This document shows positions 26,123 through 44,338 of a stretch of DNA of 64,000 bases, one piece after another. Source of the DNA: a virus (taxonomy: Duplodnaviria > Heunggongvirae > Uroviricota > Caudoviricetes); IMG/VR virus record IMGVR_UViG_3300045253_000164, positions 26,314 to 90,313 of that record. One strand, 5' to 3'. The notes beneath the pieces are model-generated. The model had not been told where the DNA came from and did no database searches. It saw only the letters and a list, made by a program, of their open reading frames with translations. The first letter of the stretch is position 1; each line of letters starts with the position of its first letter. Position numbers and translations under genes: made by a program.

Positions 26123-26141
26123 GACCTACACCTCCCCCCGC

Positions 26142-26633: not shown

Positions 26634-26645
26634 GGCGTGCCCCCT

Positions 26646-30671: not shown

Positions 30672-31718
30672 TCACTCCAACCCCAGGCCCTGCAGCACCC
30701 GCGCCGCCAGGTGCTTGTACAACCACTTCTCCATCGTGAGCGCGTAGGCCCGCTGCGTGATGGCGTCGTACTGATCCGGGTTGTCGCGCACCCATTGCGC
30801 GGCGTCTCCCATGCTAACGGCATCGCGGCTGTGCGCCAACCAGATCCCGTCGGGATCCGTCGGTCCCTCGTGTCCGAAGCAGCGCCGCGGCGCGCCGAAC
30901 GCGGACACCATCGACGGGACGTGATCGCTCAGCATCACGCAGCCCATGGCGAACGCCTCGACGATGCGCATGGGCACGAAGTCGACGTTGGAACAGCTGA
31001 GGGCACAGAGCGCCCGGTTGTAGGCGTCGGCCATGCCCTGATAGCTGAACACCTTGCCGAAGATCGTGCTGGCACTCTCACCCAGGTTGGAGCCGTACCA
31101 CTGGGCCGGCATCGCTTCGGCACCATCGAACCGCGCGCGCAGCTGGTTCCAGATGGTCGGGCGGGGTTCGTAGTGGGTGCCGATCTGACAGATCAGCTTG
31201 TCGCGATCGGCGCCGGGTTTGGTCAGCGGATGAATCTCGGGGTCCGCACCGAACACGAACCATTCCGCCGGACGCCCCTGGCGATCGACGGGTAGCGGCA
31301 CTTTGGCCGTGCGGCCGTTGTCGTCATGCTGGATGAAGTAGGCCTCGAAGTCCGCAGCGCGGAGTTGACTGCGGCTGTGCTGCTCGGCGTTAAAATTTTC
31401 GATTGCCAGGTGTCCCCACTTGATGCCCTCCGGCGCGGTGCCCGTGATAACCAAGTGGTCGTATTGATCAACCGTGCAGACCACGTCCGGTGACCATCCC
31501 ATGTCCGTGCGCGCCAGCTCGACGACGGTCCCAATGTCCACCGGCGCGTTGGGCAGCTCGAGATCGTTGCGGCGATACTCCGCCCACTGACTGAAGCCGT
31601 AGACCTCGGGCGAGCTCGGCCCCGCGGTCAACACCTCGTGGCCCAGTTGCTGGAACGCGCGGCGGACGAACAGCCCGACACACATCGGGCGACTCATGTA
31701 CGTACACAACACCCTCAT
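30672..31718 (-). CDS. GT-B fold glycosyltransferase (GT1/GT4-like, CgeB-like)
   Basis: Start at MRVLCTYM (internal ATG 31718, ATGA overlap). The C-terminal domain has DFVPMRIVEAFAMGCVMLSD, resembling the GT1 E-x7-E region. It is paralogous to 38689..39624. Confidence 0.55.
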   Translation of the reverse strand: MRVLCTYMSRPMCVGLFVRRAFQQLGHEVLTAGPSSPEVYGFSQWAEYRRNDLELPNAPVDIGTVVELARTDMGWSPDVVCTVDQYDHLVITGTAPEGIKWGHLAIENFNAEQHSRSQLRAADFEAYFIQHDDNGRTAKVPLPVDRQGRPAEWFVFGADPEIHPLTKPGADRDKLICQIGTHYEPRPTIWNQLRARFDGAEAMPAQWYGSNLGESASTIFGKVFSYQGMADAYNRALCALSCSNVDFVPMRIVEAFAMGCVMLSDHVPSMVSAFGAPRRCFGHEGPTDPDGIWLAHSRDAVSMGDAAQWVRDNPDQYDAITQRAYALTMEKWLYKHLAARVLQGLGLE

Positions 31719-32722
31719 CCCACTGTCCTCCCTGATCCTAACCGCCCCACGATGTCCAACAGGTACCGTGCGCGGGCTTCGCTCGTGTGATGCCGCAGGA
31801 AATGCGCGTGTCCCGCGGCCGCGATCTGCCGCGCCCGGTCCTCGCGATCCATCAACCACAGCGCCACATCTGCCACGCGCTCACTGCGCTGCACGTAGAA
31901 GCAGTGCACGCCATCTTCCGGGGCTTCTGGAATCTGGATGCGTGGCGCTTCGGCGACCTGGCACAACCCGTAGGCGAACTGTTCCCAGAAACGATTGTTA
32001 TCCCACTGCGTCACGTAGGGATGGCCGTTCCAGCTGATGCCGACCAACGCCTCCGCCATCCGGGCGTGATACTCCTCAGGAGACGGCCGTGTGCCTTTCT
32101 CCTGCCCGCGGTACAACCCGCAGTCGAGTTGCTCGCGTGTGATCTCACCGCGCCCTACAGCGGCTTGCAGCCCTTCGACGATCTGCATCCGCGGTCGCCC
32201 AGGGCCGTCGAAGCCGTGCGCGGTCGCGTGATAGAAGACGCGCAGCGCCTTCGAGGGCATCGGCGTCGGAACCCTGGACGCCGGATAGCAGAGTGGCAGC
32301 GGGTAACCCCAGTTGGCGCCAAGCGGCAGCTCCCGCTTGAAATAGGCAGCAAGCGGACGCCCGGCGCAGGCCTCGTAGAGACCCCGCTGATTGCCGACGT
32401 GGTCGCTGTAGTCGACCGCGACGATGGGCGTCGTGTCGTACTTCGGCAGCGCGCGTACGGTGTGCCGCACTTCTGCCGTGTGGATGGCGATCACGACAAG
32501 GTCGTACTCGACGCTCTCGGGCGCGGGTCGCGTCGGATAGAACAGATCCGAGTCGAGGCTGCATGCATCGCGTTCCGCCGGGTCGCCCAGGTGGTACGTG
32601 GGGTTTGCTGGCCAATCGATCACGTTGTGGTAGCCGAGCACGGAGACCAGGCCGTCGAAGAGGAAGGCGTTGCCATAATCGTGGCCATGCAGGCCGGAGC
32701 CGGCGAGGTAGAGGACTCTCAC
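31715..32722 (-). CDS. GT-B-like putative glycosyltransferase paralogue (family of 3)
   Basis: 335 aa, MRVLYLAGSG...AGHAHFLRHHTSEARARYLLD. It shares the N-terminal MR(V/I)L(Y/L)L motif and C-terminal helix with the other island paralogues. The GTG start overlaps the upstream stop. Confidence 0.35.
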   Translation of the reverse strand: MRVLYLAGSGLHGHDYGNAFLFDGLVSVLGYHNVIDWPANPTYHLGDPAERDACSLDSDLFYPTRPAPESVEYDLVVIAIHTAEVRHTVRALPKYDTTPIVAVDYSDHVGNQRGLYEACAGRPLAAYFKRELPLGANWGYPLPLCYPASRVPTPMPSKALRVFYHATAHGFDGPGRPRMQIVEGLQAAVGRGEITREQLDCGLYRGQEKGTRPSPEEYHARMAEALVGISWNGHPYVTQWDNNRFWEQFAYGLCQVAEAPRIQIPEAPEDGVHCFYVQRSERVADVALWLMDREDRARQIAAAGHAHFLRHHTSEARARYLLDIVGRLGSGRTVG

Positions 32723-32895
32723 CGCCGCACTTCCTTCCCCGGCCAGCCGCTGCCCTTCAGCACGAACGTCGTTGCCGACACCAGTCGCGTCACCTTGCCA
32801 CTACACCGCGGACAGCGGCGCAACGCGGGCTCCGTAATGCGCTGCTGGCGCTCGAAGGGGCCACAGCGTGGACAGTGGTACTCATAGGTCGGCAT
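32719..32895 (-). CDS. FmdB-family zinc-ribbon protein
   Basis: MPTYEYHCPRCGPFE...RRCPRCSG matches the FmdB motif MPxYEYxCxxCG plus a second CxxC. Start at internal ATG 32895. Confidence 0.55.
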   Translation of the reverse strand: MPTYEYHCPRCGPFERQQRITEPALRRCPRCSGKVTRLVSATTFVLKGSGWPGKEVRR

Positions 32896-33289
32896 TCGTG
32901 GTGATCTCCGCAGTGACCTCCGCCATTCGACGCCAATGTTCCGCAAGCGCCATCAGCAGCTTTCGCGCAGCAGAGTCACCGCATAGGCCAGCTGCAACGG
33001 CTTCTGCGTCGCTCGCACAGAACCGCAACACCCCCACCTGCACTTGGCAACGGGATGCTTCGTTTGGAGCCTCATTGAGTTGAGACAGAATCCACTCAAC
33101 ATCCGCTTCGTCAACGACGGTATAGATGCCGTTGTAGACGCCGGTGCCACGAACAGTCTGGATAGGGACGCCGCCACTGACCGGTTTCGCGTCCCGGAAG
33201 GGTCCCCCGATCTCCCACCGCGCACCCGGCATAATCTGGCGACACCAAGCAACAGCCTCTTCCTTCTTATTCACCCTCATGCCATCCAC
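32882..33289 (-). CDS. hypothetical protein
   Basis: 135 aa; overlaps its neighbours by a few nt. Confidence 0.35.
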   Translation of the reverse strand: MDGMRVNKKEEAVAWCRQIMPGARWEIGGPFRDAKPVSGGVPIQTVRGTGVYNGIYTVVDEADVEWILSQLNEAPNEASRCQVQVGVLRFCASDAEAVAAGLCGDSAARKLLMALAEHWRRMAEVTAEITTNADL

Positions 33290-33723
33290 TCCATCTGCCG
33301 CGCCCCGAATCCCACCGCCAGGTACAGCGCCGTCGCCGCCGTGTTCTCTGGCTTCAGGTTTACAATCACGCGGGTAATGCCCTGGGTCTTGAGCCAGTCC
33401 AACAGCAACGCAATCGCTTCGCGCATGTAGCCCCTGCGTCGCTGTTCGGGGGCCATCAAGACCTGGCCCAGCTCGATCGACGCGCCGTCGTGGTTGGAGA
33501 CGCCGAGCTGTCCGATGGCCACGCCGTCGTGCTCGACGATGAGCATCGTATCAGTGCCGCTCAAGTACTTCGCAAACCACGCTTCATGCTGTGCCATCGT
33601 CAATTCAGCATTGTGAAAGAACGCCTCACGGCTCGCGTTGCGCCAGACAAGCGTCAGCAGCAAATCGGCCTCGGTGAGGGGGCGCAGCGCGATGCGGGCA
33701 CCGAGAAGCGCGGGCGCTTTCAT
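33277..33723 (-). CDS. GNAT-family N-acetyltransferase
   Basis: IALRPLTEADLL...; motif A QRRRGYMREAI; KPENTAATALYLAVGF tail. Confidence 0.6.
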   Translation of the reverse strand: MKAPALLGARIALRPLTEADLLLTLVWRNASREAFFHNAELTMAQHEAWFAKYLSGTDTMLIVEHDGVAIGQLGVSNHDGASIELGQVLMAPEQRRRGYMREAIALLLDWLKTQGITRVIVNLKPENTAATALYLAVGFGARQMEWMA

Positions 33724-34856
33724 CGCAGCCCCCGCATCACGCGCCCGACGCGCTCCACGTCATCGAACGTCATCCCGACATGCAACGGCAACGACAGCAG
33801 TTCTGCCGCAGCACGCTCCGCACGCGGGCACCGTGCGGCACCGGCATACATCGGGTAGCTCGTGTTGCACTGATAGTGGACGCCGGGGAAAATCCCCTGC
33901 GCGTTTAGCTGTTGCAACAGCTGGTCACGGTTCAGAACGCGCACCTGATAGAGATGCCGCGACGACACACAACCGGGCGCTTGCGGGATTCGCTGCGCCC
34001 ACACCGGCAATACGGCATCGTAGATCTGACTGAGTTCTCGTCGCCGCAAATTGTCGGCCTTCAAATAGCGCAGCGCCACCAAGCCCATCGCCGCCATCAC
34101 CGCGTTGCCGTGATACTTGAAGCCGACGCGCGGCACGTCGTACTGCCAACGGTAGCCGCTCGTCGCCTGAGTCCGGCTGTAGGTGTCCTTGGTGATCCCG
34201 AGCCACGTGAGTTGGCGGCAGAGGTGATCGTGGGTTGGATCACGGAAGCAGACCATCCCACTGTCGGCCGTTGGCAGATTCTTTACCGCATGAAAACTGA
34301 ACACGGTCGCGTCTGCTTCTGACCCCACGTGCCGGCCGTTCCATTCGGTACCCGCCATGTGCGCGGCGTCGAGGATGAGCCGCAGGTTGTAGCGGTGGCA
34401 GATCGCAATGATCTCCGGCAGCTGTCCTGTGTTGCCCCCGATGCCAACGAACATCACGGCCCGGGTCCGCCGCGTGATCCGGGACTCTACCGACTCTGGA
34501 TCGAGGCACAGGTACTCATCAACATCGGCGAACACCGGTCGGAGTCGTTCGTAGAGGATCACATGGTTCGTCGACACAAACGTCAGCGGCGTCGCAATGA
34601 TCTCGTCGCCGTCCTGCCAGCCATCTTCAGACTTCAAGGTGTGCACAGCGAGGTGCAATCCGGCCGTCGCGGAGTTGACGAAGTGCGCGTGCGGCAATCC
34701 CGTGAAGGCTCTCCACGCCGCTTCGAAGCGCTGCGTTGTTTCACCGGGGCCCGTCCAACCGGATTCCAGGCACGGGCGAATGGCGTCCAGCACTTCGTCG
34801 ACGCGGTACATCGGTCGGAATAGATGCAACGGTGTGACCGAACCTGTGACGGTCAT
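33720..34856 (-). CDS. DegT/DnrJ/EryC1/StrS-family PLP-dependent sugar aminotransferase
   Basis: 378 aa; FSFHAVKNL contains the family's Schiff-base Lys motif (SFHxxK). GLHLAVHTL is also present. Confidence 0.75.
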   Translation of the reverse strand: MTVTGSVTPLHLFRPMYRVDEVLDAIRPCLESGWTGPGETTQRFEAAWRAFTGLPHAHFVNSATAGLHLAVHTLKSEDGWQDGDEIIATPLTFVSTNHVILYERLRPVFADVDEYLCLDPESVESRITRRTRAVMFVGIGGNTGQLPEIIAICHRYNLRLILDAAHMAGTEWNGRHVGSEADATVFSFHAVKNLPTADSGMVCFRDPTHDHLCRQLTWLGITKDTYSRTQATSGYRWQYDVPRVGFKYHGNAVMAAMGLVALRYLKADNLRRRELSQIYDAVLPVWAQRIPQAPGCVSSRHLYQVRVLNRDQLLQQLNAQGIFPGVHYQCNTSYPMYAGAARCPRAERAAAELLSLPLHVGMTFDDVERVGRVMRGLR

Positions 34857-35650
34857 GTCAGCACCGCTTGGTGCACGAGCACGTCGGCCATGGTCACGCC
34901 CTTGGGTGCAATCCGGACGGCACGGCCGGCAACGTCGATGTGCTCACCGTCAAGTCTGCGCGCTGGAAGGACCGGCGTAGCTGCGGAGACCTCAGTCTTG
35001 CCCGTCGCGTAGCTTTGGAAGTGCGGATGCCCGTTCGCCCCCAGGCCCAGGACGCGGCGTGTGTTGTCAGGCACCCAGTGATGATCGGAGTTGAGCAGGA
35101 TACTCCAGATGGCATAGCCCTGTTGCAGCGCCCAAATACAGGGCTCCCACGCCCCGTAGCCATAGCCGAAGCGCAACGCCCCAACACAGCCCCGTTCGCG
35201 GAACAGGTCGACACGGAAGCCGAACGAGAAGCTGTCCAACGTGACGCCGAGATGATCAACCGACGGCAGGCTGGGGTTGGCCTGCTCATCCCACACGGAG
35301 TAGGCGCACCAGGTCGCCAGAGCCACGCGCCAGCCGTGTGCCAGCTCCAGCTGATGCTCCCAGCCCGGCTCACGCATCGCAAAATCGTCGTGGACCACCA
35401 TGCACCAGTCCCACTGCTGGGCAACGGCGTAGTCCAGGCACCATTGCCAGAGGTCGCACTCGTCCTCGAAACGGCCGACCTGCTGCACCACCTCGACGCC
35501 CTCAGGAATCGGCGGCAACTCCCCAGCGGTGATCCCGTTCAGCAAAGCAATCACCGGGGTATCGCGTTGAGAGAAGTGCCGACAACTCCACCAGGCACGC
35601 TCCTGCATGGCGTGACGGGTGCAAGTAGGGATGATGAGGCCGACCTTCAT
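34853..35650 (-). CDS. putative GT-A fold glycosyltransferase
   Basis: 265 aa; MKVGLIIPTCTRH resembles the GT2 N-terminus; VHDDFAM is a DxD-like motif. Weak. Confidence 0.3.
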   Translation of the reverse strand: MKVGLIIPTCTRHAMQERAWWSCRHFSQRDTPVIALLNGITAGELPPIPEGVEVVQQVGRFEDECDLWQWCLDYAVAQQWDWCMVVHDDFAMREPGWEHQLELAHGWRVALATWCAYSVWDEQANPSLPSVDHLGVTLDSFSFGFRVDLFRERGCVGALRFGYGYGAWEPCIWALQQGYAIWSILLNSDHHWVPDNTRRVLGLGANGHPHFQSYATGKTEVSAATPVLPARRLDGEHIDVAGRAVRIAPKGVTMADVLVHQAVLT

Positions 35651-37093
35651 CTACCCTTCCACCATACGATCGCCGACCGCCAGCATATCCACGCCCAACT
35701 GCCGCGCCGTACCTTCCGCGTCGGTCACGGTGTTTGCCATCGCCTGCCCGTGCCCGTTGAAGCTGGTGTTGAGCAGCATCGGCACACCCGTTGCGCAACC
35801 GAACGCCGCGAGGATGTGACCGAGCACAGACGACTCGTCGACGAGCTGCACACGCGCCGACCCGTCGGCGTGTACAGCGGCCGGCGCCAGCCGCCGCATC
35901 TCCTCGGTGGCCTGGCAGATCGTGGTCATGAACTCGTAGGCGCCGGGATCGATCAGGTCGAAGTAACGTCGGGCGTGTCGACGCAGCACGACCGGCGCCA
36001 CCGGCCGCCACGGCGCGCGCTGCTTCATCTCGTTCAGCCGGCCCTTGATGGCGAGCGATCGCGGATCCGCCAAAAGCGAGCGATGACCCAGCGCTCTTGG
36101 TCCCGACTCAGCGCGGCCGTTCACCAGCGCGACGATCTGCCCCTCGAGCAGCGCGTCGACGACGCGATCAACATTGGGTGTGCCTTCCAATCCCGGCTCC
36201 GTCCAGCCGGCAAACGCCACCTGCTCCACGGAGTACCGTCGGCGTGGCTCTCCCAGGATCCGATGCAGGACATACAACGCTGCCCCGATGGACAGGCCGC
36301 CATCGTCGCACGCAGGAGGTACCCATGCAGCGGGAACATGACCGGAGCGGAGCAATGCATGCACGGCAATCCCGTTGAGCGCGCAGCCGCCGGCGATCAC
36401 CACCGGACGCCCTGCAGGCACGAGCTCGTGGAACGCGTCGATCGTCTGGGCCTCGAGCGTCGCCACGCGCGATCGGACGGCGGGGTCCATTCCCGTTCGA
36501 GCGGTGAAATCCTCCGCGGGAATACCGAGCAGCGCCATGACGGTGCCTTCTTGAAACTGCCCGCCGCAGATCTGGTGGGAGGCGTCGTTCCAGGCGCCCC
36601 CGATACCAGGGCAGGGATGCCAGCGGATGCCGAAGGTTTCGCCGTTGCCATTGCCCACTGCGCAGGTGATCACCTTGAGCCCTTCGGGCGTCTTGTAGGC
36701 GTCGCCGCCGCCGTCCAGCGCGAGAATCGAAGCCTGGTCGTAAGGACTCGTGTAGTAGGCATACGCGGCGTGGGCCGTGTGATGAGGAATGCCGAAGGCG
36801 CGGCGATCTCCACCGAGCACGCAGCTCGAGCGGTCATCGAACTGCATCAGGTCGTCCCAGCCGTTGCGCGTAATGCCGAACATCCCCGATACGCCGGCCA
36901 TATAGGTGATCTGCTCCCGGGTGATCCCGATCAGTCGGCAGGCGTCGTCGACCTGCTCCATCGGTGCTAGGGTATCGTGCCGGATGCGGGTGAAGCGCTC
37001 GCGCTCGAAGTGGACGATCTTGCCGTCGCCGACAATGGCGAAGCTGCCGTCGTGGCCCTGGTAAGCGCCCAGCACGTAGATGGGGTCAGCCAT
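35651..37093 (-). CDS. NodU/CmcH-family O-carbamoyltransferase
   Basis: 480 aa; IPHHTAHAAYAYYTSPY, ESGPRALGHRSLLADPR and MLLNTSFNGHGQ match the conserved carbamoyltransferase N- and C-domain motifs. Confidence 0.75.
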   Translation of the reverse strand: MADPIYVLGAYQGHDGSFAIVGDGKIVHFERERFTRIRHDTLAPMEQVDDACRLIGITREQITYMAGVSGMFGITRNGWDDLMQFDDRSSCVLGGDRRAFGIPHHTAHAAYAYYTSPYDQASILALDGGGDAYKTPEGLKVITCAVGNGNGETFGIRWHPCPGIGGAWNDASHQICGGQFQEGTVMALLGIPAEDFTARTGMDPAVRSRVATLEAQTIDAFHELVPAGRPVVIAGGCALNGIAVHALLRSGHVPAAWVPPACDDGGLSIGAALYVLHRILGEPRRRYSVEQVAFAGWTEPGLEGTPNVDRVVDALLEGQIVALVNGRAESGPRALGHRSLLADPRSLAIKGRLNEMKQRAPWRPVAPVVLRRHARRYFDLIDPGAYEFMTTICQATEEMRRLAPAAVHADGSARVQLVDESSVLGHILAAFGCATGVPMLLNTSFNGHGQAMANTVTDAEGTARQLGVDMLAVGDRMVEG

Positions 37094-37096
37094 CCG

Positions 37097-37369
37097 CTAG
37101 ACTTCTTCCCATCCGCACAACCACAGTGTGTCGAGATTATCGCTGCGGCCGGCCAGTACCACATCCACCATGACATCAATGTCCCTGATGCGCAGGCCGA
37201 ACAAAACATTTGCCGTCTGAACGCAGAGATGAAGCGCGGCTTCCGCGGATCGCGACAAATTGCCACCGACAGATACCGCTGCCTCAATCAGTGACCACGG
37301 ATTCAACCCTCGATAGGGATTCACGCGGTTGCTCAGTCGGTGATCGATGCGAATCCAATTCTGGTTCAT
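37097..37369 (-). CDS. hypothetical protein
   Basis: 90 aa from internal ATG 37369 (MNQNWIRIDH...), with ATGA overlap to the upstream stop. Confidence 0.35.
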   Translation of the reverse strand: MNQNWIRIDHRLSNRVNPYRGLNPWSLIEAAVSVGGNLSRSAEAALHLCVQTANVLFGLRIRDIDVMVDVVLAGRSDNLDTLWLCGWEEV

Positions 37370-38376
37370 GCCAACAACTCCACCAGCCGCGCCACATACA
37401 GCGCCCTGGCCTCGCTGGTGTGCCACTGCGCAAACCAAGCGTGTCCAGCCTTGGCGATGTCCAACGCCCGCTGCGGCTCGTGAATCAACGATTCCACTGC
37501 GGCGCCCACCGCCTCTGGAGTGAGCGCGTACACACAATGCACGCCGTCCACGAACGGCTTCGGAATCTGGATCCTCGGGGATTCGATCACCTGGCACACA
37601 GCATAGGCAAATTGCTCCCAGACACGATTGCAGTCCCAGTTCTGGACGTAGGGGAAGCCGTTCCACGAAATCCCCACCAGCGCCTCGGTCATCTGGGTGT
37701 GGTAGTCGACCGGCAGCAGGTTGGTGGCGCGGCTCGTGTGGAGACCGACGTTCAACGTGTCGCCGTACGGCATCCTCCGGCGCAGGTCATCGACGATTTG
37801 CCGCCGCACGGCGCCGGCGCCGTCGAGCGTGTCGCCATGGCCGCTCGCATGGTAGAAAACCCGTACTAGCTTGTGCACCGGCGCCTGAGGGATACGACTA
37901 GCCGGATACATCAGCGGCAGCGGCAACGCCCAGGTCGCGCCGATCGGGAGCTCGCGCTTGAAGTGCGCGGTCAGCGGCCGTCCCGCGAGCGAGCGGTACC
38001 AGTCGCCGTTGTTGACACCGAAGGCGTCGCCCAGATCGCAGGCAATCACCGGCTTGGTGCGAGGCCACGCGCGCAGCAACGGCTCATGCGCGCGCATGTG
38101 ATGGTCACCGGGTTGCGTGGCGATGCAGAGCACGTCACAGCCATCCATGACGTCCATCGCCGTATGCCCCTTGCGCGGCCAGTCCTGGTCGGAGTCGTAA
38201 GGGCACTCTCGGCACACCGGACACTCCGCCGTCTCACGTGGTCGGTGCAGGGAATCGGACTCCGGCACCGCAAACACGTTGTCGATGCCGAGCGTGGCGT
38301 AGAAGCCACCCAGCAGGAAGTCCGCGCCCAGGTCGTGAGAGTGGGCGCGCGGGGACATGAGGTAGAGGACGCGCAT
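37366..38376 (-). CDS. GT-B-like putative glycosyltransferase paralogue (family of 3)
   Basis: 336 aa MRVLYLMSPRAHSHDLG...AGHAWFAQWHTSEARALYVARL; paralogue of 31715..32722 and 44661..45644. Confidence 0.35.
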   Translation of the reverse strand: MRVLYLMSPRAHSHDLGADFLLGGFYATLGIDNVFAVPESDSLHRPRETAECPVCRECPYDSDQDWPRKGHTAMDVMDGCDVLCIATQPGDHHMRAHEPLLRAWPRTKPVIACDLGDAFGVNNGDWYRSLAGRPLTAHFKRELPIGATWALPLPLMYPASRIPQAPVHKLVRVFYHASGHGDTLDGAGAVRRQIVDDLRRRMPYGDTLNVGLHTSRATNLLPVDYHTQMTEALVGISWNGFPYVQNWDCNRVWEQFAYAVCQVIESPRIQIPKPFVDGVHCVYALTPEAVGAAVESLIHEPQRALDIAKAGHAWFAQWHTSEARALYVARLVELLA

Positions 38377-38377
38377 T

Positions 38378-38692
38378 CTACTTCGTCAGCTCAGCCAATC
38401 GCTCGCGCAGACCTGGGAGTCGTGCGGCCTGCTTCTCGACAAATTCAATCTGCGCGGTCACTACACACATTTCGCACCAGGCCACTGGACGACACCCATG
38501 AGCAAACTCCAACGCTGACAACTGTTCGCCGCTCCACCACTTTGTGCCTGGTCGCGTCTTGCAATTCCCGCAAAGTGCCTGTCCGTCAGGTTTTCTGAAG
38601 TAGGCCTCCTGGGGAATGTACGACCCCACATCAACCACGTAACCCGCCTGCGCGCCGCTGGCCGTTATCTGCCCCACCGAGTAATCGCTCAC
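38378..38692 (-). CDS. small Cys-containing hypothetical protein
   Basis: ~104 aa from GTG 38692 (GTGA overlap with the upstream stop); CGNC...CEMC. The 5' part of the tracked ORF overlaps the next gene and is rejected. Confidence 0.25.
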   Translation of the reverse strand: MSDYSVGQITASGAQAGYVVDVGSYIPQEAYFRKPDGQALCGNCKTRPGTKWWSGEQLSALEFAHGCRPVAWCEMCVVTAQIEFVEKQAARLPGLRERLAELTK

Positions 38693-39624
38693 CGCAGCCC
38701 CATCCCTTCCAGCACCCGCCGCAACCGATGCTGATACGAGTCGCGCCCGCGCACCAACTCGTACGCCCGCTGCGCCATGCCGCCGTCGCCTTCCCGTCGG
38801 AGTCGACGCACGGTGTCGATGAGCCACTCGGGATCCGGCATCCCTTCGCCGCCTGGTCCTGGGATGGGATCGAAGCCGATGAAGTGCTCGCCATCGTTGA
38901 ACAGCTTCAGCGTCGACGGGTTCCTGTCGGCAATCACCACGCATCCCATGGCCATCGCCTCGAACACCCGCGTCGTCACGAAGTCCAGCGTAGAGCAACA
39001 ATAGGTGGCGAGGCTGTTCTGATAGGCGCAGGCGTACAGCGGTCCCCAGACATCACCGAAGAAGGTATGGATATCGGGGGCGCGCTCACGCACGGTGTGC
39101 CAGATGTGCTGGCGTGCCTCGCGGGCGCTGGCCAGTTGGACCAGGTCGTATTCGCGGGAGGCGCCGGAGAATGACGCGCAGTACGGCGGGATCCAGTGCT
39201 CGTCGGCGTCGAACGCCTTGGGCAGCCACTGCACGCCGGCGTCTGCGCCGTTGCACATGATCTCCGCGTAGCGATGCGGCGTTAGGCCCCGCGACCATTC
39301 CATCGCGGCGCCTTCGGAGTCGATGTGCGCCCAGGGAATGTCGGGCAGGTCCCCGTCGGCCCAGCGCAGGCCTTCGCCGCCACTGGCAATGATCGCGCAG
39401 TCGAGAGGTTCAGTGAAGTTCAGCACCGCAATTGTCTCGCGCCACGGGACCGGCATGCTCGTATTGAGAAACGCCTGCGGCTCGCGCCCCCGCGTCCCCC
39501 ACGGCTCCTGGTCGCGCCACGGGCCAACGGTAACGACCTCATGACCGAGCTGCCGCAGCGCCCGAAGGTAGTAGTATGGCAACCCGCAGCGCCGGTGCCA
39601 CGTGCCGAGGAGCAGGATTCTCAT
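38689..39624 (-). CDS. GT-B fold glycosyltransferase (GT1/GT4-like, CgeB-like)
   Basis: Start at MRILLLGTWHRRCG (ATG 39624). The C-terminal DFVTTRVFEAMAMGCVVIAD parallels that of 30672..31718. Confidence 0.55.
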   Translation of the reverse strand: MRILLLGTWHRRCGLPYYYLRALRQLGHEVVTVGPWRDQEPWGTRGREPQAFLNTSMPVPWRETIAVLNFTEPLDCAIIASGGEGLRWADGDLPDIPWAHIDSEGAAMEWSRGLTPHRYAEIMCNGADAGVQWLPKAFDADEHWIPPYCASFSGASREYDLVQLASAREARQHIWHTVRERAPDIHTFFGDVWGPLYACAYQNSLATYCCSTLDFVTTRVFEAMAMGCVVIADRNPSTLKLFNDGEHFIGFDPIPGPGGEGMPDPEWLIDTVRRLRREGDGGMAQRAYELVRGRDSYQHRLRRVLEGMGLR

Positions 39625-39781
39625 GTCGTTGGATACCTGTGATACATTCGGCACATCATGTGGGCAGGTAATAACCCACTAACGCCGCCCCACATTGGCT
39701 GCCACGGCCACACAAACCAGCCGCACAAATAGCAAACATGGTTGTGGTAATAGTTCGCGCCGTCCGACCATCCCTGCGATC

Positions 39782-40705
39782 TCACTCCCGCACCTCGGCA
39801 CTGCTGATCCCATCGCTGAGCCCGTGGTAGGCCTTGCTGACCGCCCAGCAATCCACGCCAACGAAGTAGTGCGCGCGGGCCAGCATCTCGAAAAACGCCG
39901 CATCGCCCACGCCGTGTCGATTGTCCTCGCCCCAGTACTCGACATTGTTGGGGCCGTGGACGCGGCCATACTCGACCCACACCAAACACGCCCCCAGACA
40001 GTTGACGCGGTGCATCACCTGGTTGTGATCACAGCGTCCATCGACGCCGTAGCGCATCAACCCAGGACGCCAGAAGCCCTCTTCAACCCAGGATGCGTGC
40101 GTGTCGGGATCCACCCCGTCGTCGTACAGCGCGCGAAAACTCGCGCCGCCGTTCAACGCGGCGCGCGGGCCGGTCGGCAGCGGGAAGTCCGCCGTCAGCG
40201 GCTGCGGAGGCCCGCTGTTCTGCCACTGGTTGCGGGAGCCATCGGCGCCAAACTGCACTGATCGCAGCCGCCCGTACACGACGTGTTCTTGAGGGTGCGC
40301 ATCGAGATACTCGGCCCGCAGTCGGACACTGTGCGGGTGCAGGACGTCATCGTCGCAGAGATACGTCAGGTACCGCTCGTCACGCCGCAGATGATTCAGC
40401 CCGATGTTGATGGTCCTCGAGTAGGGGATCGTCGCCTTGCGCTCGGCCATCGTGCGATCCGGTCCCATCCACCAGGTCACGCGATCGGTGCTCACCGCGA
40501 CGCCGCCGGCGACGTGCTGCTCGGAGTCCCACGCGGTGAGGCCCTGGGCGTCACGAATGGCGGCGCGCGCCTCAGGATTGCAACCGTCGTCGAGCACAAG
40601 TAACCGCCAGCGGTCGCAGTCCTGCGCCAGCACCGAGGCGATCGCCGCCGCCACCATGCGCGGCCGGTTGTAGGTGGTCAGCAGCACCAGGGTGTCGCGG
40701 CTCAT
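39782..40705 (-). CDS. family-2 (GT-A) glycosyltransferase
   Basis: LVLLTTYNRPRMVAAAIASVLAQDCDRWRLLVLDDGCNPEA plus YLCDDDVL (DxD). Start at MSRDT (ATG 40705, ATGA overlap). Confidence 0.7.
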   Translation of the reverse strand: MSRDTLVLLTTYNRPRMVAAAIASVLAQDCDRWRLLVLDDGCNPEARAAIRDAQGLTAWDSEQHVAGGVAVSTDRVTWWMGPDRTMAERKATIPYSRTINIGLNHLRRDERYLTYLCDDDVLHPHSVRLRAEYLDAHPQEHVVYGRLRSVQFGADGSRNQWQNSGPPQPLTADFPLPTGPRAALNGGASFRALYDDGVDPDTHASWVEEGFWRPGLMRYGVDGRCDHNQVMHRVNCLGACLVWVEYGRVHGPNNVEYWGEDNRHGVGDAAFFEMLARAHYFVGVDCWAVSKAYHGLSDGISSAEVRE

Positions 40706-41646
40706 TCCAGCCTCCGCACCATCGTCAGCCCGAAACCCCACGGGAGCGTCAGCACCTCGAACTCCGGGCGCTGCCGCAGCTCGTTCACCACGATCGCCAC
40801 GCCAGTGTCGGCGTTCGTGGCCGCGCCGTTCTCAAAATAGTCGTGCAGCAGACAGAGTCCGTTGACGCGAACGCGGGGCAGGTAGCGCTCGACGTCAGCC
40901 CGCACCTGGGCCTCGCTGTGATCACCATCGATCCAGAGCAGATCGAGCGTCTCGGGCGGCTCAAAGTCGTTGGAGTTGATCACATGCAGCGCCCACCATT
41001 GGCTCAGCTTGGCCTGGTCGACGTAGCACGCGGCCTTCTCGGCAGCCTCTGCGTCGCACTCCAGCGAATGCAGGAGTCCACCTGTCTCGCGCATGGCGTA
41101 GAGCAACGGCATCGTCGAGATGCCTTCACGTACGCCGATCTCCAACACCACTGGCGGTCGTACAGGTCCCCGAGATTCGGGGTCGGGCCAGTTGACCCAC
41201 TTCGCAATGCTGTAGAGCACCAGCAAGTGCGGCCGTGAGTCGTAGAAGTCGCCGGCCTCCGTCCACCAGGCAGTGTCCCGGCTCAGCGCCACGAGCTCGG
41301 CGTCGCCGAACGGGCCGCGCCAGGGAGCGTTGACGCCGCCCCCCGATGGTCGCGGACTCCCGGGGCGTATGGCGCGTTGGAGGTCCACGCGTTCCGCCGC
41401 CAGCGAGAAATCCAGACGTCGTGGCGCGGTCAACGGCGGCGGTAGAATCGTTGCCCGCGTCGGTTGCAGCGTCGGCTGCGCCAAGCTCACCGGCGCCGAG
41501 CGTGGCGCAGGTGTCTGGGCAACGCTAGTCGCGAAGCGCAGGAAGAAGCTGAGGCCTGTGCGGGCGATCAGCTCTACCTGGTCCGGTGCGAAGCGATCGG
41601 CGAAGGTCGATCGCATCGCGGATTCGAATTGCTCGGCGGCGCTCAT
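40702..41646 (-). CDS. class I SAM-dependent methyltransferase (TylF/MycF-like, probable O-methyltransferase)
   Basis: LEIGVREGISTMPLL (motif I), LLWIDGDHSEAQV...LLHDYF. Confidence 0.6.
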   Translation of the reverse strand: MSAAEQFESAMRSTFADRFAPDQVELIARTGLSFFLRFATSVAQTPAPRSAPVSLAQPTLQPTRATILPPPLTAPRRLDFSLAAERVDLQRAIRPGSPRPSGGGVNAPWRGPFGDAELVALSRDTAWWTEAGDFYDSRPHLLVLYSIAKWVNWPDPESRGPVRPPVVLEIGVREGISTMPLLYAMRETGGLLHSLECDAEAAEKAACYVDQAKLSQWWALHVINSNDFEPPETLDLLWIDGDHSEAQVRADVERYLPRVRVNGLCLLHDYFENGAATNADTGVAIVVNELRQRPEFEVLTLPWGFGLTMVRRLE

Positions 41647-41873
41647 CGCGGATGTCCAGCGTCACAGGCCCACGACGTGGAGCTGCCGACCTCGAAGGCG
41701 TCGTGGGGCCACCACGAGGCACGAATTGGTACGACGGTGATCGATGTACCGTGCGTCAACTCCCTCGCGAGGAAATAGCGCGCGCGGGACACAACGCAGA
41801 AGTCTGCTCCTGGATGCGCAGCCAGCGCGGCACAGAGCCGTTCGCGGAACACTTCGTCGGTCATCTGGTCCAT
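41643..41873 (-). CDS. hypothetical protein
   Basis: 76 aa, translationally coupled between the two MTase paralogues. Confidence 0.35.
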   Translation of the reverse strand: MDQMTDEVFRERLCAALAAHPGADFCVVSRARYFLARELTHGTSITVVPIRASWWPHDAFEVGSSTSWACDAGHPR

Positions 41874-41876
41874 GGG

Positions 41877-42674
41877 CTACAGCTCCACAATCCGGTCGTC
41901 CGGCTCGAAGGCCGGCGACAACACCCGCACCAACGTCAGGCCGAATGAAAACGGTAGTGTCAAGATCTCATAGCACCCCGTCTGCCGCAGCTGTTCCACG
42001 GCGGCGCTGACGTAGCTCGGGAACGGCGGCTGAATCGGCGGATCGCACGGCCAGGGCTTGGAGTAGTAGTCGTGCAGCGCAATGAGCCCTCCGGGCCGCA
42101 CCTGCGGCACGAAGCGCTCGACGTCCTTGCGCACCTGGTCGAGGCCGTGATCGCCGTCGATCAGCAGGAAGTCCAGCGGCCGCCCCAGCGTTGCGCAGTC
42201 GAAGTCGTCGGAGCGCTGGATGCGCAGGTCCCACCACGGCGTCAGCTGGGCCCGCTCGATGACGTCAGCCGCGGCACGCGCCCAGTCCGGATCACACTCC
42301 AGTGACACCAAGCGCCCATTGGCTTCGCGCATCGCGTGCAGCAGGTTCAACGTGCTGACGCCATGACGCACACCAATCTCCAAGCAGAGCGGTGGTCGTA
42401 GCGGCCGCGGCGCGCGGGGGTCGGGCCAATTGATGTTCCTGGCCAGCGCGTAAAGGATCGGCCCATGCGCACGCACATCGAACCAGTCGTCGACGCTCTT
42501 GCCATCAGGGCCGGTGTTGATGAACGCGCGGGTGTCGCGGCTCAGCGCCAGTAGCATAGCGTCATCCCAGGTGGCGCTGGTGACACTGGCGGACGCAGGG
42601 GGGACCGCTGCGGGCACCGCCACCGATGATGGCGGTGTCCCGCAGCGGAGACGATAGAGGGCGTCGAGGTCCAC
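41877..42674 (-). CDS. class I SAM-dependent methyltransferase (paralogue of 40702..41646)
   Basis: CLEIGVRHGVSTLNLL, FLLIDGDHGLDQV...ALHDYY. Confidence 0.6.
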   Translation of the reverse strand: MDLDALYRLRCGTPPSSVAVPAAVPPASASVTSATWDDAMLLALSRDTRAFINTGPDGKSVDDWFDVRAHGPILYALARNINWPDPRAPRPLRPPLCLEIGVRHGVSTLNLLHAMREANGRLVSLECDPDWARAAADVIERAQLTPWWDLRIQRSDDFDCATLGRPLDFLLIDGDHGLDQVRKDVERFVPQVRPGGLIALHDYYSKPWPCDPPIQPPFPSYVSAAVEQLRQTGCYEILTLPFSFGLTLVRVLSPAFEPDDRIVEL

Positions 42675-43035: not shown

Positions 43036-43428
43036 TTACTCCTTCTCCCGCAGCAAGCGGGGCTGTAGTTGCGTGATTCGAGACGCGTGCCATTGACCGC
43101 GGCGCTGACGTTCCGCCATGAAGGCGTCGGCAACGTCGAACGCGGCGATCACGATCAGCTCGCTGGCGCGCTCGGCTCCGACCGCCTGTTTCGCAGCGGT
43201 CGCAAGCTCCGGATCAGTAGCCATGCGTGCCAGCAGCACCATGGCGCACTCGTCGCGGAGCGCAGTGTCGGGGTCGTGGCCGTTGAGAACGGTTCCGGTG
43301 GTAGGGCCTATGCGTTCCATCCTGTCCTTCCTACTCGCGCACCTGCAGGTCGGTCCGATGGCCGTGTGCGTGGTAACAGTCGGAATCGAGCCATCACTCG
43401 CGCCTGCTCGGATCACTTCGGTGTCCAT
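43036..43428 (-). CDS. hypothetical protein
   Basis: Tracked ORF 43036..43542; plausible starts at ATG 43428 or 43320; C-terminal helical region. Confidence 0.3.
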   Translation of the reverse strand: MDTEVIRAGASDGSIPTVTTHTAIGPTCRCASRKDRMERIGPTTGTVLNGHDPDTALRDECAMVLLARMATDPELATAAKQAVGAERASELIVIAAFDVADAFMAERQRRGQWHASRITQLQPRLLREKE

Positions 43429-44338
43429 ACGGATGCCCGTATCGCTTGACCACCACGACGTCCGGGACGCTGTGAAAGGGACCGAGGCCGGCGAGCTCCA
43501 GGCGATAGAACCAGCCAGCGTCAGGACAGTCGAAGCGCTCACCAGGCAACCACGATTCCGAAAACGGCGCGTCGTCTATTTCTTCAAGTTGCCGGATGCG
43601 TCCATGCTCTTCATACCGAAAGATTTCCCGCGTTCGCGTTTCTGGCCATTGCGGAATACTCATCGGCAATCCGGCCAAGCCGCCATAGATGAACCCGTCG
43701 GGACCTGTATGCTCAAGCATGTTCGGTACACGCCGCACCATCGGCATCCCGTGGTCACAGCGGTTGGCGATGCGCGCCACGGGTTCGGCGGAGTAGAAGC
43801 TGTTGCGGTCATGCTTGCACTTGCCAGCGCCCTGAAGGAACGACGGCAAGCTGGGTCGTACCCCAAATTCGCCACAGTCAATCCCCTCAGGCAACGAATG
43901 CAGTCCCATTGCTGGCATGGGCGACTTACAGCTTTCCAGCCGCCCGTAAACCACATTCACCTCGGGATGCTCGATCAAGTACCGCACCCGGACTTCGATG
44001 CTGCCCAGCGTAAGAAAATCATCGTCAGGTAAATAGACCACGAAGTCCCCGTGCACGCACGCCATCGCCGTGTTGATGCAGATGGCGCAGCGCTGACCGT
44101 GCTGGCGCTCCTCCGGCGTCGGCGGCGGTCCAGGCTGGACGCACAACAGGCTGCGACCCTCGGTGAAGCACGAGCCGTACTCGGCGAGCACGTCGTGCAC
44201 AGCGTGATCGCTCCAATCGTCGGCGACAATGACCTCGATGTTCGGCCAGGTCTGCGCGAGGATGCTGTCCAGCGCATCACGGATCAACGTTGGCCGATTG
44301 TACGAGCTGAGTACGACACTGACGAGCGGCTCGTTCAT
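43394..44338 (-). CDS. family-2 (GT-A) glycosyltransferase
   Basis: VSVVLSSYNRPTLIRDALDSILAQTWPNIEVIVADDWSD plus VVYLPDDDFL (DxD). Confidence 0.7.
   Translation of the reverse strand: MNEPLVSVVLSSYNRPTLIRDALDSILAQTWPNIEVIVADDWSDHAVHDVLAEYGSCFTEGRSLLCVQPGPPPTPEERQHGQRCAICINTAMACVHGDFVVYLPDDDFLTLGSIEVRVRYLIEHPEVNVVYGRLESCKSPMPAMGLHSLPEGIDCGEFGVRPSLPSFLQGAGKCKHDRNSFYSAEPVARIANRCDHGMPMVRRVPNMLEHTGPDGFIYGGLAGLPMSIPQWPETRTREIFRYEEHGRIRQLEEIDDAPFSESWLPGERFDCPDAGWFYRLELAGLGPFHSVPDVVVVKRYGHPYGHRSDPSRRE

Follow-up and report, generated by a model that had tools for sequence, protein, structure and literature searches.

The DNA analyzed here, a stretch of 64 kb referred to below as the window, carries a gene cluster (29560-52807, ~23 kb) which very probably serves an uncultivated tailed phage to build and tailor a glycan. 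This cluster lies on the minus strand, as do all the features given below by their coordinates, and is split into two blocks by a gap of ~3.3 kb, in which small ORFs and a single DNA methylase gene, on the plus strand, are found. It encodes eight soluble glycosyltransferases, three methyltransferases, one carbamoyltransferase and an amino-sugar module. Neighboring genes between 45683 and 29560 mostly overlap by 4 bp or are separated by 0-3 bp, in an operon-like organization, and ~740 bp separate the end of the lower block from the genes for head protease, scaffold and capsid, which follow downstream. The phage context is established by a head protease, a major capsid protein, a tape measure protein and a large terminase found in the window. 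Since the G+C content is even across the cluster (0.63-0.66), it is not a recent insertion of foreign DNA. At least four related phages, all uncultivated, share this arrangement, and those represented by the window and the loci L035, L038 and L122 are divergent from one another. In these four, the cluster is on the same strand as, and 0.1-0.8 kb upstream of, the protease, scaffold and capsid genes, while its internal gene order is shuffled and protein identities reach only 40-60%. All the ORFs named in an initial annotation of this DNA are present on the minus strand at the coordinates it gave, with family matches far beyond chance. Its general reading, a phage gene set for sugar modification, stands, while the 4,6-dideoxyhexose route, the TylF label and the gene-level novelty which it had put forward do not.

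The amino-sugar module had been assigned to the canonical route leading to 4-amino-4,6-dideoxyhexoses, with two SDR enzymes as 4,6-dehydratase/epimerase candidates. Both SDR genes indeed exist (48983-49990 and 50208-51179), but the T-D-E (or T-D-K) signature of the dehydratase required by this route is found in neither of them. The first one (Epimerase Pfam, 1.5e-55), which carries YGIAK, is a GalE-like UDP-sugar 4-epimerase, its best PDB match being the UDP-glucose 4-epimerase 4zrm (3.2e-54), and in NCBIfam galE (TIGR01179, 2.6e-46, 158 bits) exceeds the LegB 4,6-dehydratase (1.4e-39, 136 bits). The second one (Epimerase Pfam, 9e-44) is an extended SDR resembling the ArnA decarboxylase and UDP-xylose synthases (UXS). 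Its best curated family in NCBIfam is PRK11908 (UDP-4-keto-pentose/UDP-xylose synthase, 8.8e-29), with ArnA at 7.2e-24, and its PDB matches include MoeE5, TunA, PbgP3, ArnA and UXS. It exhibits the motifs SSEVYG, YAVSK and GPSCHPRW, aligned to TSEVYG and GPVNKPRW of ArnA, and thus possesses S-S-E and the "GP..PRW.Y..SK" stretch of the ArnA decarboxylase domain; R619 of ArnA has no aligned counterpart because the alignment stops at ArnA residue 575.

The adjacency of the DegT and GNAT genes was correctly described, the two overlapping by 4 bp, and the pair is kept in L035, L038 and L123. The DegT protein (33720-34856; DegT_DnrJ_EryC1, 3.8e-82), a PLP-dependent nucleotide-sugar 4-aminotransferase whose PLP-lysine motif SFHAVK occupies residues 187-192, is closest to ArnB. 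Among solved structures, three ArnB entries are nearest (1.9e-51 to 1.3e-49), 17 orders of magnitude in E-value ahead of PseC (8.9e-34), whereas in NCBIfam PseC (5.8e-67, 226 bits) scores slightly above ArnB (8.3e-64, 216 bits). The GNAT N-acetyltransferase (33277-33723; Acetyltransf_3, 1.8e-18) matches PseH (1.1e-4) and WecD (4.3e-4) only weakly in NCBIfam, and no specific family could be assigned; none of the curated NCBIfam equivalog cut-offs for ArnA, ArnB and PseC was reached. A 4-amino-4,6-dideoxyhexose of the bacillosamine, Fuc4NAc or QuiNAc4NAc type, N-acetylated and then methylated and carbamoylated on whichever acceptor, would be consistent with the PseC, PseH, WecD and LegB matches, and its 4-keto-6-deoxy precursor could come from the host. 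Given the missing signature, the better match of the first SDR to GalE and to solved 4-epimerases, the ArnA/UXS-type motifs of the second and the lead of ArnB among DegT structures, we regard this chemistry as unlikely. Collectively, the lack of dehydratase signature, the ArnA/UXS-like SDR and the ArnB-nearest DegT protein fit better with the conversion of UDP-glucuronate into an N-acetylated 4-amino-4-deoxypentose, and we give such an Arn-like pathway an even chance on the basis of sequence. Against this pathway count the unreached equivalog cut-offs, the unaligned R619 position and the absence of a UDP-glucose dehydrogenase gene from the window. Host UDP-glucuronate would undergo oxidative decarboxylation to a UDP-4-keto-pentose by the ArnA/UXS-like SDR, followed by transamination to UDP-4-amino-4-deoxypentose by the ArnB-like enzyme and N-acetylation of the amino sugar by the GNAT protein, while the GalE-like SDR may be the source of a second, C4-epimerized UDP-sugar.

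The eight glycosyltransferases, whose folds and families are evident and whose substrates are predicted, would assemble these sugars into an oligosaccharide on a cytoplasmic acceptor. A conserved pair of GT-B-type enzymes (30672-31718, Pfam 2.4e-9, and 31715-32722, GT4-like) is located at the downstream end, towards the head genes. Other GT-B-type enzymes, matching Glyco_trans_1_2, are encoded at 37366-38376 (1.1e-5; 48% identical to 31715-32722), 38689-39654 (1.8e-13) and 44661-45683 (9.1e-6; a paralogue of 31715-32722 with 33% identity), and GT2 enzymes at 39782-40741 (Pfam 6.3e-11) and 43394-44338 (GT-A; Glycos_transf_2, 1.3e-15). Conservation in L035, L038 and L122 amounts to 37-49% identity for 30672-31718 and 42-51% for 39782-40741, and the L035 homologue of 38689-39654 is 73% identical. 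The remaining gene (34853-35650), which always adjoins the DegT gene, codes for an orphan glycosyltransferase in which an HDD (DxD-like) motif is invariant; a methyltransferase assignment was ruled out for this protein, its fold being GT-A. Three of the glycosyltransferases (37366-38376, 38689-39654 and 39782-40741) are located within the interval of the initial annotation, where they went unmentioned.

Fold matches of these glycosyltransferases include PimA, PimB', WaaB and PglA, while a dozen generic GT4 enzymes match at least as well as T4 AGT does. The latter result bears on the possibility that the sugars are attached to modified bases of the phage DNA for restriction evasion, as in T4. 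With its three N6/N4 DNA methylases, this phage devotes much of its coding capacity to DNA modification, the cluster of the related locus L036 includes a dCMP deaminase, and phages have recently been shown to put multi-sugar glycans on DNA. However, neither a thymidylate-synthase-like hydroxymethylase nor any other base-modifying enzyme is found in the 64-kb window, eight glycosyltransferases and an amino-sugar pathway far exceed any described DNA glycan, and the cluster adjoins the head genes instead of being part of a replication module. DNA hypermodification is thus very unlikely.

Regarding tailoring, the two O-methyltransferase-like proteins encoded at 40702-41646 (Methyltransf_24, 1.5e-17) and 41877-42674 (2.1e-20; an alternative gene call begins at 42557) are true paralogues, as had been noticed, with 47% identity over 215 aa (E=1e-50). 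The label "TylF-like" is appropriate for their broad class I O-methyltransferase fold but not for their family, which is Methyltransf_24, as neither matches TylF (PF05711) at E<=0.01; PDB matches of 41877-42674, to CCoAOMT-like O-methyltransferases and MycE, are weak. Another class I SAM methyltransferase (52079-52807; Methyltransf_11, 4.8e-12) occupies the upstream edge of the cluster, and a 40% identical homologue is found at the corresponding edge of L038. These three enzymes may O-methylate the glycan.

The protein encoded at 35651-37093 is an O-carbamoyltransferase of the NodU/CmcH/TobZ family (Carbam_trans_C, 6e-49; Carbam_trans_N, 7.7e-19) which combines a Kae1-like N-domain and a YrdC-like C-domain. 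The three motifs on which this assignment had been based are real: H104/H105/H108 (HHxxH), G331-S339 (GPRALGxRS) and N442-N446 (NTSxN) are invariant, along with D127 and D264, across 28 aligned subfamily members, and the enzyme looks catalytically complete by its motif content. Like TobZ, it would use carbamoyl phosphate and ATP to O-carbamoylate the glycan via carbamoyl-AMP. The proposed connection to Nod factors finds no support, the NodU equivalog model giving 135.9 bits for a cut-off of 1000. The nearest solved relatives of the carbamoyltransferase include, at equal scores (~3e-38), the sugar-acting TobZ and NovN and the non-sugar enzyme GdmN. These three belong to antibiotic pathways, as do some SDR and DegT matches (MoeE5, TunA, TlmJ), and additional radical-SAM enzymes occur in L123 and pelagiphage Mosig, which would be in line with a diffusible glycosylated small molecule, aminoglycoside-like or nucleoside antibiotic-like, instead of a polymer-bound glycan. 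Such a product is nevertheless highly improbable: PDB coverage is skewed to antibiotic enzymes, the window encodes no exporter and no scaffold-forming enzyme (PKS, NRPS, cyclitol synthase), and eight glycosyltransferases point to an oligosaccharide.

Taken singly, the enzyme types are not new to phage genomes. The carbamoyltransferase falls into PHROG 1601 ("Nol-like carbamoyltransferase", 1.5e-75) and has homologues in 146 deposited phage records, the DegT protein in 32. In pelagiphage Mosig, DegT, carbamoyltransferase, methyltransferase and epimerase genes are found together, and in cyanomyophages both "LPS gene clusters" and genes for carbamoyltransferases have been on record since 2010 (PMC3037559). 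The earlier suggestion that genes for carbamoylated and methylated sugars were unknown in phages is therefore contradicted at the level of genes.

These cyanomyophage genes are usually interpreted as remodeling the host envelope (PMC3037559). Under such a reading, the enzymes would alter a glycan of the host surface (LPS O-antigen or core, capsule, S-layer or cell-wall glycan) while the phage infects or lysogenizes the cell, relying on a host lipid-linked primer and a host flippase or transporter, with superinfection exclusion or blocked re-adsorption of progeny as the outcome. Lipid A modification is the normal role of ArnA/ArnB-like enzymes, and soluble GT4 and GT2 enzymes often work on lipid-linked acceptors at the cytoplasmic membrane face, as the fold matches above recall. 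Moreover, an SPFH lipoprotein and a small signal-peptide protein, the only exported proteins of the cluster, are embedded within it, and a terminator-like hairpin (28828-28861; 15-bp stem and T-run) separates the cluster from the protease gene. Although terminator-like sites in the region are in total not above chance, this stem is the longest by far, so that one cannot take for granted that cluster and head genes are co-transcribed. However, the 23 kb contain no initiating phosphoglycosyl transferase, flippase, polymerase, ArnC/ArnT-like or Gtr-like membrane protein, and none of the cluster proteins has predicted TM segments typical of Wzx, Wzy, phosphoglycosyl transferase or ArnT. Neither integrase nor repressor was seen in the 64-kb window, and adjacency to head genes is kept in the four divergent phages. 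Envelope remodeling consequently appears rather doubtful.

The head module (24875-28822, identified by PHROGs and Pfam), located downstream of the cluster, holds candidate glycan acceptors. It encodes the head protease (27845-28822), a DUF6582 scaffold-like protein (26646-28028), a putative decoration protein of 163 aa (26142-26633), whose L122 orthologue has a faint Phage_cement_2 match, and the major capsid protein (24875-26122). The last gene before this module (29560-30291) encodes a Cys-rich protein of 243 aa without Pfam family, whose homologues in L035, L038 and L122 (42-48% identical) occur only in cluster-bearing relatives, with no match in the cluster-less L120 or L121. A small, conserved Zn-ribbon protein of the cluster (32719-32895; Zn_ribbon_8 in Pfam on the called genes of L001 and L035) is 55% identical in L035. 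L120 and L121 lack the cluster at the equivalent position, and among 33 IMG/VR viral contigs encoding relatives of the capsid protein, many of which include under 10 kb of sequence upstream of its gene, tblastn recovered no cluster genes except a homologue of the GalE-like SDR alone in two loci. In the more distant, carbamoyltransferase-bearing L036 and L040, the cluster does not adjoin recognizable head genes.

The capsid protein itself contains a clade-specific 14-residue Gly/Ser/Thr/Ala-rich loop insertion at about residues 300-318. An insertion in this loop is present in all 41 closest capsid proteins (P0130-P0170, 51-60% identical to that of the window), with the consensus PVLGGTxSAAGANQGVLAG and a size of ~14 residues in most and ~8 in a few, and absent from more distant capsid relatives. 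Eight members of this clade are cluster-bearing, three by locus and five by being on contigs equal in length to a carbamoyltransferase-bearing contig (one of which, L038, was read), while L120 has the short form yet no cluster within 10 kb upstream. Because a single clade underlies it, the association between insertion and cluster is confounded by phylogeny.

Self-glycosylation of the virion is, tentatively, the best reading of these data, the acceptor being the phage's own particle, with the capsid protein, via its surface-loop insertion, and the small putative decoration protein as candidates. It is favored by the lack of membrane machinery, the conserved site upstream of the head genes, the absence of the cluster from other capsid relatives and the capsid insertion in the cluster-bearing clade. 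A precedent exists in mycobacteriophages Che8, Corndog and Myrna, whose own glycosyltransferases are reported to glycosylate capsid and tail-tube proteins (Freeman et al., 2023, as summarized in PMC12363180 and PMC12619734). Against it stand the hairpin, the restriction of the insertion association to one clade, the location of the L036 and L040 clusters away from head genes, and the fact that the glycosyltransferases and methyltransferases share no sequence similarity with any deposited phage, mycobacteriophage systems included. Virion self-glycosylation would parallel that of mycobacteriophages, and what is unusual in this phage is the scale of the cluster, not its single enzyme types.

The genes in the interval 33277-42674 are the core of a sugar cluster that covers ~23 kb, extending on the minus strand from 52807 down to 29560 and organized in two blocks. 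The upper block (52807-48983) encodes a Methyltransf_11 enzyme and two SDRs, and in the lower block (45683-29560) neighbouring genes mostly overlap by 4 bp or lie 0-3 bp apart. Between them, a gap of ~3.3 kb contains small ORFs and a plus-strand DNA methylase gene (46470-47534). This gene, which interrupts the cluster on the opposite strand in a stretch of locally lower G+C (0.604), is one of three N6/N4 DNA methyltransferase genes in the 64 kb, the two others being located at 1909-3414 and 55651-56469, both on the minus strand. Eight glycosyltransferases are encoded by the cluster, namely five of GT-B type (Pfam Glyco_trans_1_2), two GT2 enzymes and an orphan GT-A enzyme; those at 37366-38376, 38689-39654 and 39782-40741 lie inside the core interval and were absent from the initial annotation. 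Other genes code for two Methyltransf_24 paralogues, a carbamoyltransferase, a DegT aminotransferase, a GNAT acetyltransferase, a small Zn-ribbon protein and a Cys-rich 243-aa protein. The GNAT, DegT, carbamoyltransferase and two methyltransferase genes had already been called at these positions, and Pfam bears out each of them.

The Cys-rich protein (29560-30291, minus strand), which contains CCYDDC, CRICK and CQHCH motifs and is without family, is kept only in cluster-bearing relatives (the metagenomic loci L035, L038 and L122), always as the last gene before the head genes. The only exported products of the cluster are an SPFH/Band-7 lipoprotein (51207-52013, minus strand; lipobox LSGC; Pfam Band_7, 4.7e-17) and a small protein with a signal-peptide-like N-terminus (MMRTIVVVTLLVTALTAHA; ~48262-48720, minus strand). 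The genes of these two embedded proteins have a GC3 below that of their neighbours and are moron-like in look.

The two SDRs, the DegT and the GNAT enzymes have been proposed to form a route to a 4-amino-4,6-dideoxyhexose. The SDRs are indeed present outside the core interval, at 48983-49990 and 50208-51179, but their identity as 4,6-dehydratases is not sustained: the T-D-E or T-D-K signature is absent from both and no further SDR was found among the ORFs scanned. This route requires a 4,6-dehydratase and neither SDR resembles one; it could operate if a host-made 4-keto-6-deoxy sugar served as the DegT substrate. The SDR at 48983-49990 best matches solved UDP-glucose and UDP-GlcNAc 4-epimerases (4zrm, 3.2e-54), has GalE as its top curated model and contains the motif SS-MAVYG, with no T-D-E/T-D-K. 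The SDR at 50208-51179 has S-S-E (SSSEVYG) where ArnA and UDP-xylose synthase have their catalytic Thr-Ser-Glu, together with YAVSK, and its stretch IGPSCHPRWGYAVSK aligns to VGPVNKPRWIYSVSK of ArnA, PRW included. Among curated families, it scores best with the bifunctional UDP-4-keto-pentose/UDP-xylose synthase (8.8e-29; 100.6 bits for a cut-off of 294) and next best with ArnA; its alignment to the solved ArnA structure extends to ArnA residue 575, short of R619. The DegT protein (33720-34856), a DegT/DnrJ/EryC1 enzyme by Pfam (3.8e-82, 353 of 360 profile positions) with the PLP-binding lysine motif SFHAVK at residues 187-192, has as its closest solved structures three ArnB enzymes (1.9e-51 to 1.3e-49), PseC scoring 8.9e-34. 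In NCBIfam, PseC (226.2) and ArnB (215.6) are nearly tied, both below their own cut-offs (631 for ArnB). The GNAT acetyltransferase (33277-33723; Pfam, 1.8e-18) received no specific family assignment.

Collectively, SDRs without dehydratase features, an ArnA/UXS-like SDR and an ArnB-like DegT enzyme point to an amino-pentose. Conversion of UDP-GlcA into UDP-4-keto-pentose, UDP-4-amino-4-deoxypentose and finally its N-acetyl derivative would fit the gene content better than a 6-deoxyhexose route, a proposal which we consider evenly poised between right and wrong. No UDP-glucose dehydrogenase was found in the window. The proposed pathway is reminiscent of the Arn (Pmr) pathway to L-Ara4N, as ArnB is the solved structure nearest to the cluster DegT and the 50208-51179 SDR has the S/T-S-E, PRW and YxxxK of ArnA. 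In contrast to the Arn pathway, the cluster is devoid of the ArnA formyltransferase domain (profile searches of the cluster gave no formyltransferase match) and has a GNAT enzyme in its place, which implies an N-acetyl rather than an N-formyl sugar. It is also devoid of ArnC, ArnD, ArnT and ArnE/F, and scores fall below the curated equivalog cut-offs. The product of the module is presumably destined for a glycan, not for lipid A.

The orphan GT-A, DegT and GNAT genes are consecutive in the window and in the related loci L035 and L123, and L038 has the same order with one inserted methyltransferase gene. This conserved linkage suggests that the orphan GT-A enzyme (34853-35650) transfers the amino sugar. 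Its family has nine members among 5.8 billion protein clusters and an invariant HDD motif, and AlphaFold gives a pLDDT of ~90 for residues 1-60 and ~79-89 for residues 61-100. The same protein had been considered as a third methyltransferase paralogue, an assignment rejected in favour of the GT-A fold. In L035 (5829-7229), the orphan GT-A carries at its C-terminus a methyltransferase-like domain (VLELGV...DLVIDDAGH), a fusion which implies that a dedicated partner methylates the transferred sugar. The two Methyltransf_24 genes of the window (40702-41646 and 41877-42674) are, as had been noticed, paralogous (47% identical, E=1e-50). Their description as TylF-like was not reproduced, since Pfam at E<=0.01 gives Methyltransf_24 and, weakly, Methyltransf_3 and returns no match of either paralogue to the TylF profile (PF05711). 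They weakly resemble metal-dependent class I O-methyltransferases, including PDB 7cvu (9.3e-5) and, only marginally, MycE (3.8e-3) and demethylmacrocin O-methyltransferase (0.42).

The carbamoyltransferase (35651-37093) consists of a Carbam_trans_N (Kae1-like) domain (7.7e-19) followed by a Carbam_trans_C (YrdC-like) domain (6e-49), both over the Pfam gathering scores. It matches PHROG 1601, 'Nol-like carbamoyltransferase' (1.5e-75), and the solved TobZ, NovN and GdmN (~3e-38). The HHxAH-type, GPRALGxRS and NTSFN motifs reported by the initial annotation are real: H104, H105 and H108 (HHxxH), D127, D131, D264, GPRALGxRS (331-339) and NTSxN (442-446) do not vary across 28 sequences of the subfamily, and the predicted metal-site and adenylation-site residue set is intact. 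The enzyme shares with TobZ, NodU, CmcH, NovN and GdmN the Kae1-like then YrdC-like order, the metal-site His and Asp residues and the carbamoyl-adenylate motifs. It differs from these enzymes of 570-700 aa in being only 480 aa long, with an N-domain ~75 residues shorter (query residue 232 corresponds to TobZ 308). The subfamily includes ~26 metagenomic proteins (P0002-P0026 and P0028) which are 37-52% identical to it, full-length identity then dropping to 28-36%. The exact protein is recorded on a 90,313-bp JGI contig and on a 20-kb Logan contig, and a peptide-pattern search of IMG/VR for it was negative. Exact DNA patterns likewise gave no hit in viral_contigs or metagenome_contigs to the part of the 90-kb source contig beyond the window. 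Its likeness to NodU does not extend to the Nod-factor enzyme itself: against NF041651 it reaches 135.9 bits for a cut-off of 1000, with the C-terminal half alone aligning, and a NodU orthologue was rejected. As the sugar-acting TobZ and NovN and the macrolactam-acting GdmN, its nearest solved relatives, have equal scores, the substrate is not readable from the family alone; from the gene context, we infer that it is a sugar.

The next question is where this glycan is assembled. A hydropathy scan of the 29.5-52.8 kb region revealed no multi-pass membrane protein and none with flippase, polymerase, phosphoglycosyl transferase or ArnT segments. Similarly, the hallmarks of Wzx/Wzy or ABC-dependent loci (initiating phosphoglycosyl transferase, flippase or transporter, and polymerase) had no Pfam match in the cluster. 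This lack of membrane machinery argues for soluble enzymes that would build the glycan on an acceptor in the cytoplasm. The cluster might alternatively serve to remodel a glycan of the host envelope, with a lipid primer from the host as its foundation, the traditional reading of the cyanophage 'LPS clusters' (PMC3037559); we regard this as unlikely here. Modification of the phage DNA, in which the sugars would serve hypermodification, appears improbable, as the window yielded neither a hydroxymethylase nor any other enzyme of base modification and the fold match to T4 AGT is generic, and a small-molecule product is very improbable.

Virion proteins are the acceptor that we tentatively favour, with a confidence just short of even. 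This reading is supported by the location of the cluster beside head genes in four divergent phages, by the mycobacteriophage precedent and by a distinctive capsid insertion of the clade. Downstream of the cluster in the direction of transcription are encoded the head protease (27845-28822, minus strand), a DUF6582 scaffold-like protein with a small putative decoration protein, and the major capsid protein (24875-26122, minus strand). In L035, L038 and L122, the cluster shares a strand with the protease, scaffold and capsid genes and lies shortly upstream of them, 0.1-0.8 kb from the protease gene, the L122 version being reduced to two methyltransferases, one GT2, two downstream GT-B enzymes and the Cys-rich protein. 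In L120 and L121, which are more distant capsid relatives, a MuF/NUDIX-type giant protein occupies that position and there are no sugar genes. All 41 closest capsid proteins (P0130-P0170) have the capsid insertion (residues ~300-318), which is rich in Gly, Ser, Thr and Ala (PVTGGTVSAAGANQGVLAG) and missing from more distant relatives; it adds ~14 residues in most and ~8 in a few. Eight members of the insertion clade are counted as having the cluster, three by locus and five because their contigs equal a carbamoyltransferase-bearing contig in length, of which one (L038) was read. The insertion broadly co-occurs with the cluster, within a single clade only and with L120 as a borderline exception.

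Several observations count against a virion acceptor. L120 has the short form of the insertion and no cluster within 10 kb, and the insertion represents one clade. In the window, an unusually long terminator-like hairpin (28828-28861, minus strand; 15-bp stem followed by TCTTTTT) just upstream of the protease gene parts the cluster from the head module. Furthermore, in the more distant loci L036 and L040, the latter originating from Hainich groundwater, the cluster is apart from recognisable head genes. In its most specific form, the virion reading holds that an uncultivated high-GC tailed-phage lineage builds a methylated, carbamoylated N-acetyl-aminopentose oligosaccharide on its own capsid or decoration proteins with its own soluble enzymes alone, the capsid-loop insertion being the attachment site. 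We consider this full version doubtful. If it were true, the toolkit of eight glycosyltransferases, at least three methyltransferases, a carbamoyltransferase and an Arn-like module would be the most elaborate bacteriophage self-glycosylation known. It would also bring carbamoylation to the glycan of a virus particle for the first time and put the Ara4N pathway to a non-lipid-A use.

Loci identified through the carbamoyltransferase and the capsid protein show that other phages share this gene set, in rearranged order and with proteins 40-60% identical. Together with the even G+C over the cluster, this shared gene set indicates a long-standing, lineage-specific module just upstream of the head genes. 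Among the 33 IMG/VR loci encoding capsid relatives, many of which extend for under 10 kb on the upstream side of that gene, tblastn detected no cluster gene except a GalE-like SDR homologue in two. Some relatives have additional genes within the cluster: a radical-SAM enzyme is encoded with DegT, carbamoyltransferase and methyltransferase in L123 (1398-2546) and in the pelagiphage Mosig (L039, 10326-11150), and a dCMP deaminase is found inside the L036 cluster (6913-7353).

The virion glycosylation of mycobacteriophages, which has been shown recently, alters antibody recognition and hence has a bearing on phage therapy. Corndog also carries genes for O-methyltransferases within or close to its structural genes. 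The systems concerned are those of Che8 (gp110 and its neighbours), Corndog (gp38 operon) and Myrna (Freeman et al., 2023, as relayed in passages of PMC12363180 and PMC12619734). In these systems, phage glycosyltransferases act on cytoplasmic virion proteins with no membrane export machinery, and the present cluster likewise encodes eight soluble glycosyltransferases and no transmembrane protein. It is nevertheless much larger than its mycobacteriophage counterparts and adds a nucleotide-sugar amination and acetylation module and a carbamoyltransferase. Two of the eight glycosyltransferases (one GT-B and one GT2) had no tblastn match among 50,697 phage records, a collection presumed to include the mycobacteriophages, and one Methyltransf_24 gene had a single match there, covering 18% of it, in an uncultured phage.

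Carbamoyltransferase homologues are found in 146 deposited phage records, mostly of cyanomyophages and pelagiphages, and DegT homologues in 32. With PHROG 1601, the Mosig gene set and the mycobacteriophage glycosyltransferases, these records contradict the earlier suggestion that such chemistry is new to phage genomes. The clusters of P-SSM2, S-SSM7, S-SM2 and Mosig (MT647606, genes 87-96) encode a NodU-type carbamoyltransferase 27-35% identical to that of the window, and in Mosig the gene adjoins those of DegT, methyltransferase and epimerase enzymes. While the present cluster lies beside head genes, those of the cyanophages and pelagiphages, which are low-GC myoviruses, are in hypervariable regions, and the annotated region of Mosig lists no glycosyltransferase. 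Giant viruses offer another parallel. The fibril sugars of Mimivirus (such as viosamine and bacillosamine) are made by viral dehydratase, aminotransferase and acetyltransferase enzymes, and PBCV-1 capsid glycans contain methylated sugars. As in the reading proposed here, their own nucleotide-sugar amination, N-acetylation, methyltransferases and soluble glycosyltransferases decorate virion proteins; however, these viruses infect eukaryotic hosts, their sequences are unrelated, and they use 6-deoxyhexose routes without carbamoylation. Fold matches of the cluster glycosyltransferases include two PBCV-type enzymes and one from Mimivirus.

The phage itself belongs to an uncultivated lineage, as its capsid protein has no tblastn match among the 50,697 deposited phage genomes. 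This protein has 33 relatives on IMG/VR viral contigs (31-50% identity), and a host search for its prophage relatives in 185,579 GTDB species genomes found none. A nucleotide search of the core interval against deposited phages was also without match. The window has a G+C of ~64%, with coding nearly all on the minus strand, and contains zero tRNA genes and zero Rfam families. Tail genes, including those of a 1559-aa tape measure protein and a 1966-aa fibre-like protein, are downstream of the cluster. The large terminase gene (37-1908, minus strand) comes downstream of those for tail and fibre, with a DNA methylase gene immediately before it. Such an order is unusual and suggests that the window shows the genome in permuted form. 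A portal gene was not identified in the window, and no window ORF matches what precedes the protease gene in capsid relatives. The N-terminus of a 507-aa protein (57719-59242, minus strand) resembles Dockerin type I (1.5e-6), and this protein is without PHROG match. A 30-bp tandem repeat at 63902-64000 (consensus GGGGTCCTCGCAGCCGCACGTGGTAGCGTG; 3.3 copies, 84% matches) runs past the window end; iterons, a packaging or origin element and a piece of a longer array are candidate explanations.

The cluster is well-defined, conserved and experimentally approachable, and encodes phage glycan biosynthesis which may serve virion glycosylation. While its individual parts are known from phages, a siphovirus-type genome does not usually combine them on this scale or place them next to head genes. 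At the level of sequence, what appears to be new is the lack of relationship of the tested glycosyltransferases and methyltransferase to deposited phages, the Arn-like look of the amino-sugar module and the orphan GT-A family. Enzymology and glyco-engineering could draw on this family, with its nine known members, and on the compact carbamoyltransferase subfamily. For the marine-phage genes annotated as 'Nol-like carbamoyltransferase', long unexplained, the cluster provides a testable glycan-tailoring context. Should the target be the host envelope or DNA, it would still be among the largest sugar-metabolic cassettes in a siphovirus-sized genome. If this lineage does glycosylate its own particle, self-glycosylation would exist outside actinobacteriophages, with a chemistry far more elaborate than known, combining amino sugar, O-methyl and O-carbamoyl groups, and would have evolved independently from unrelated glycosyltransferase families.
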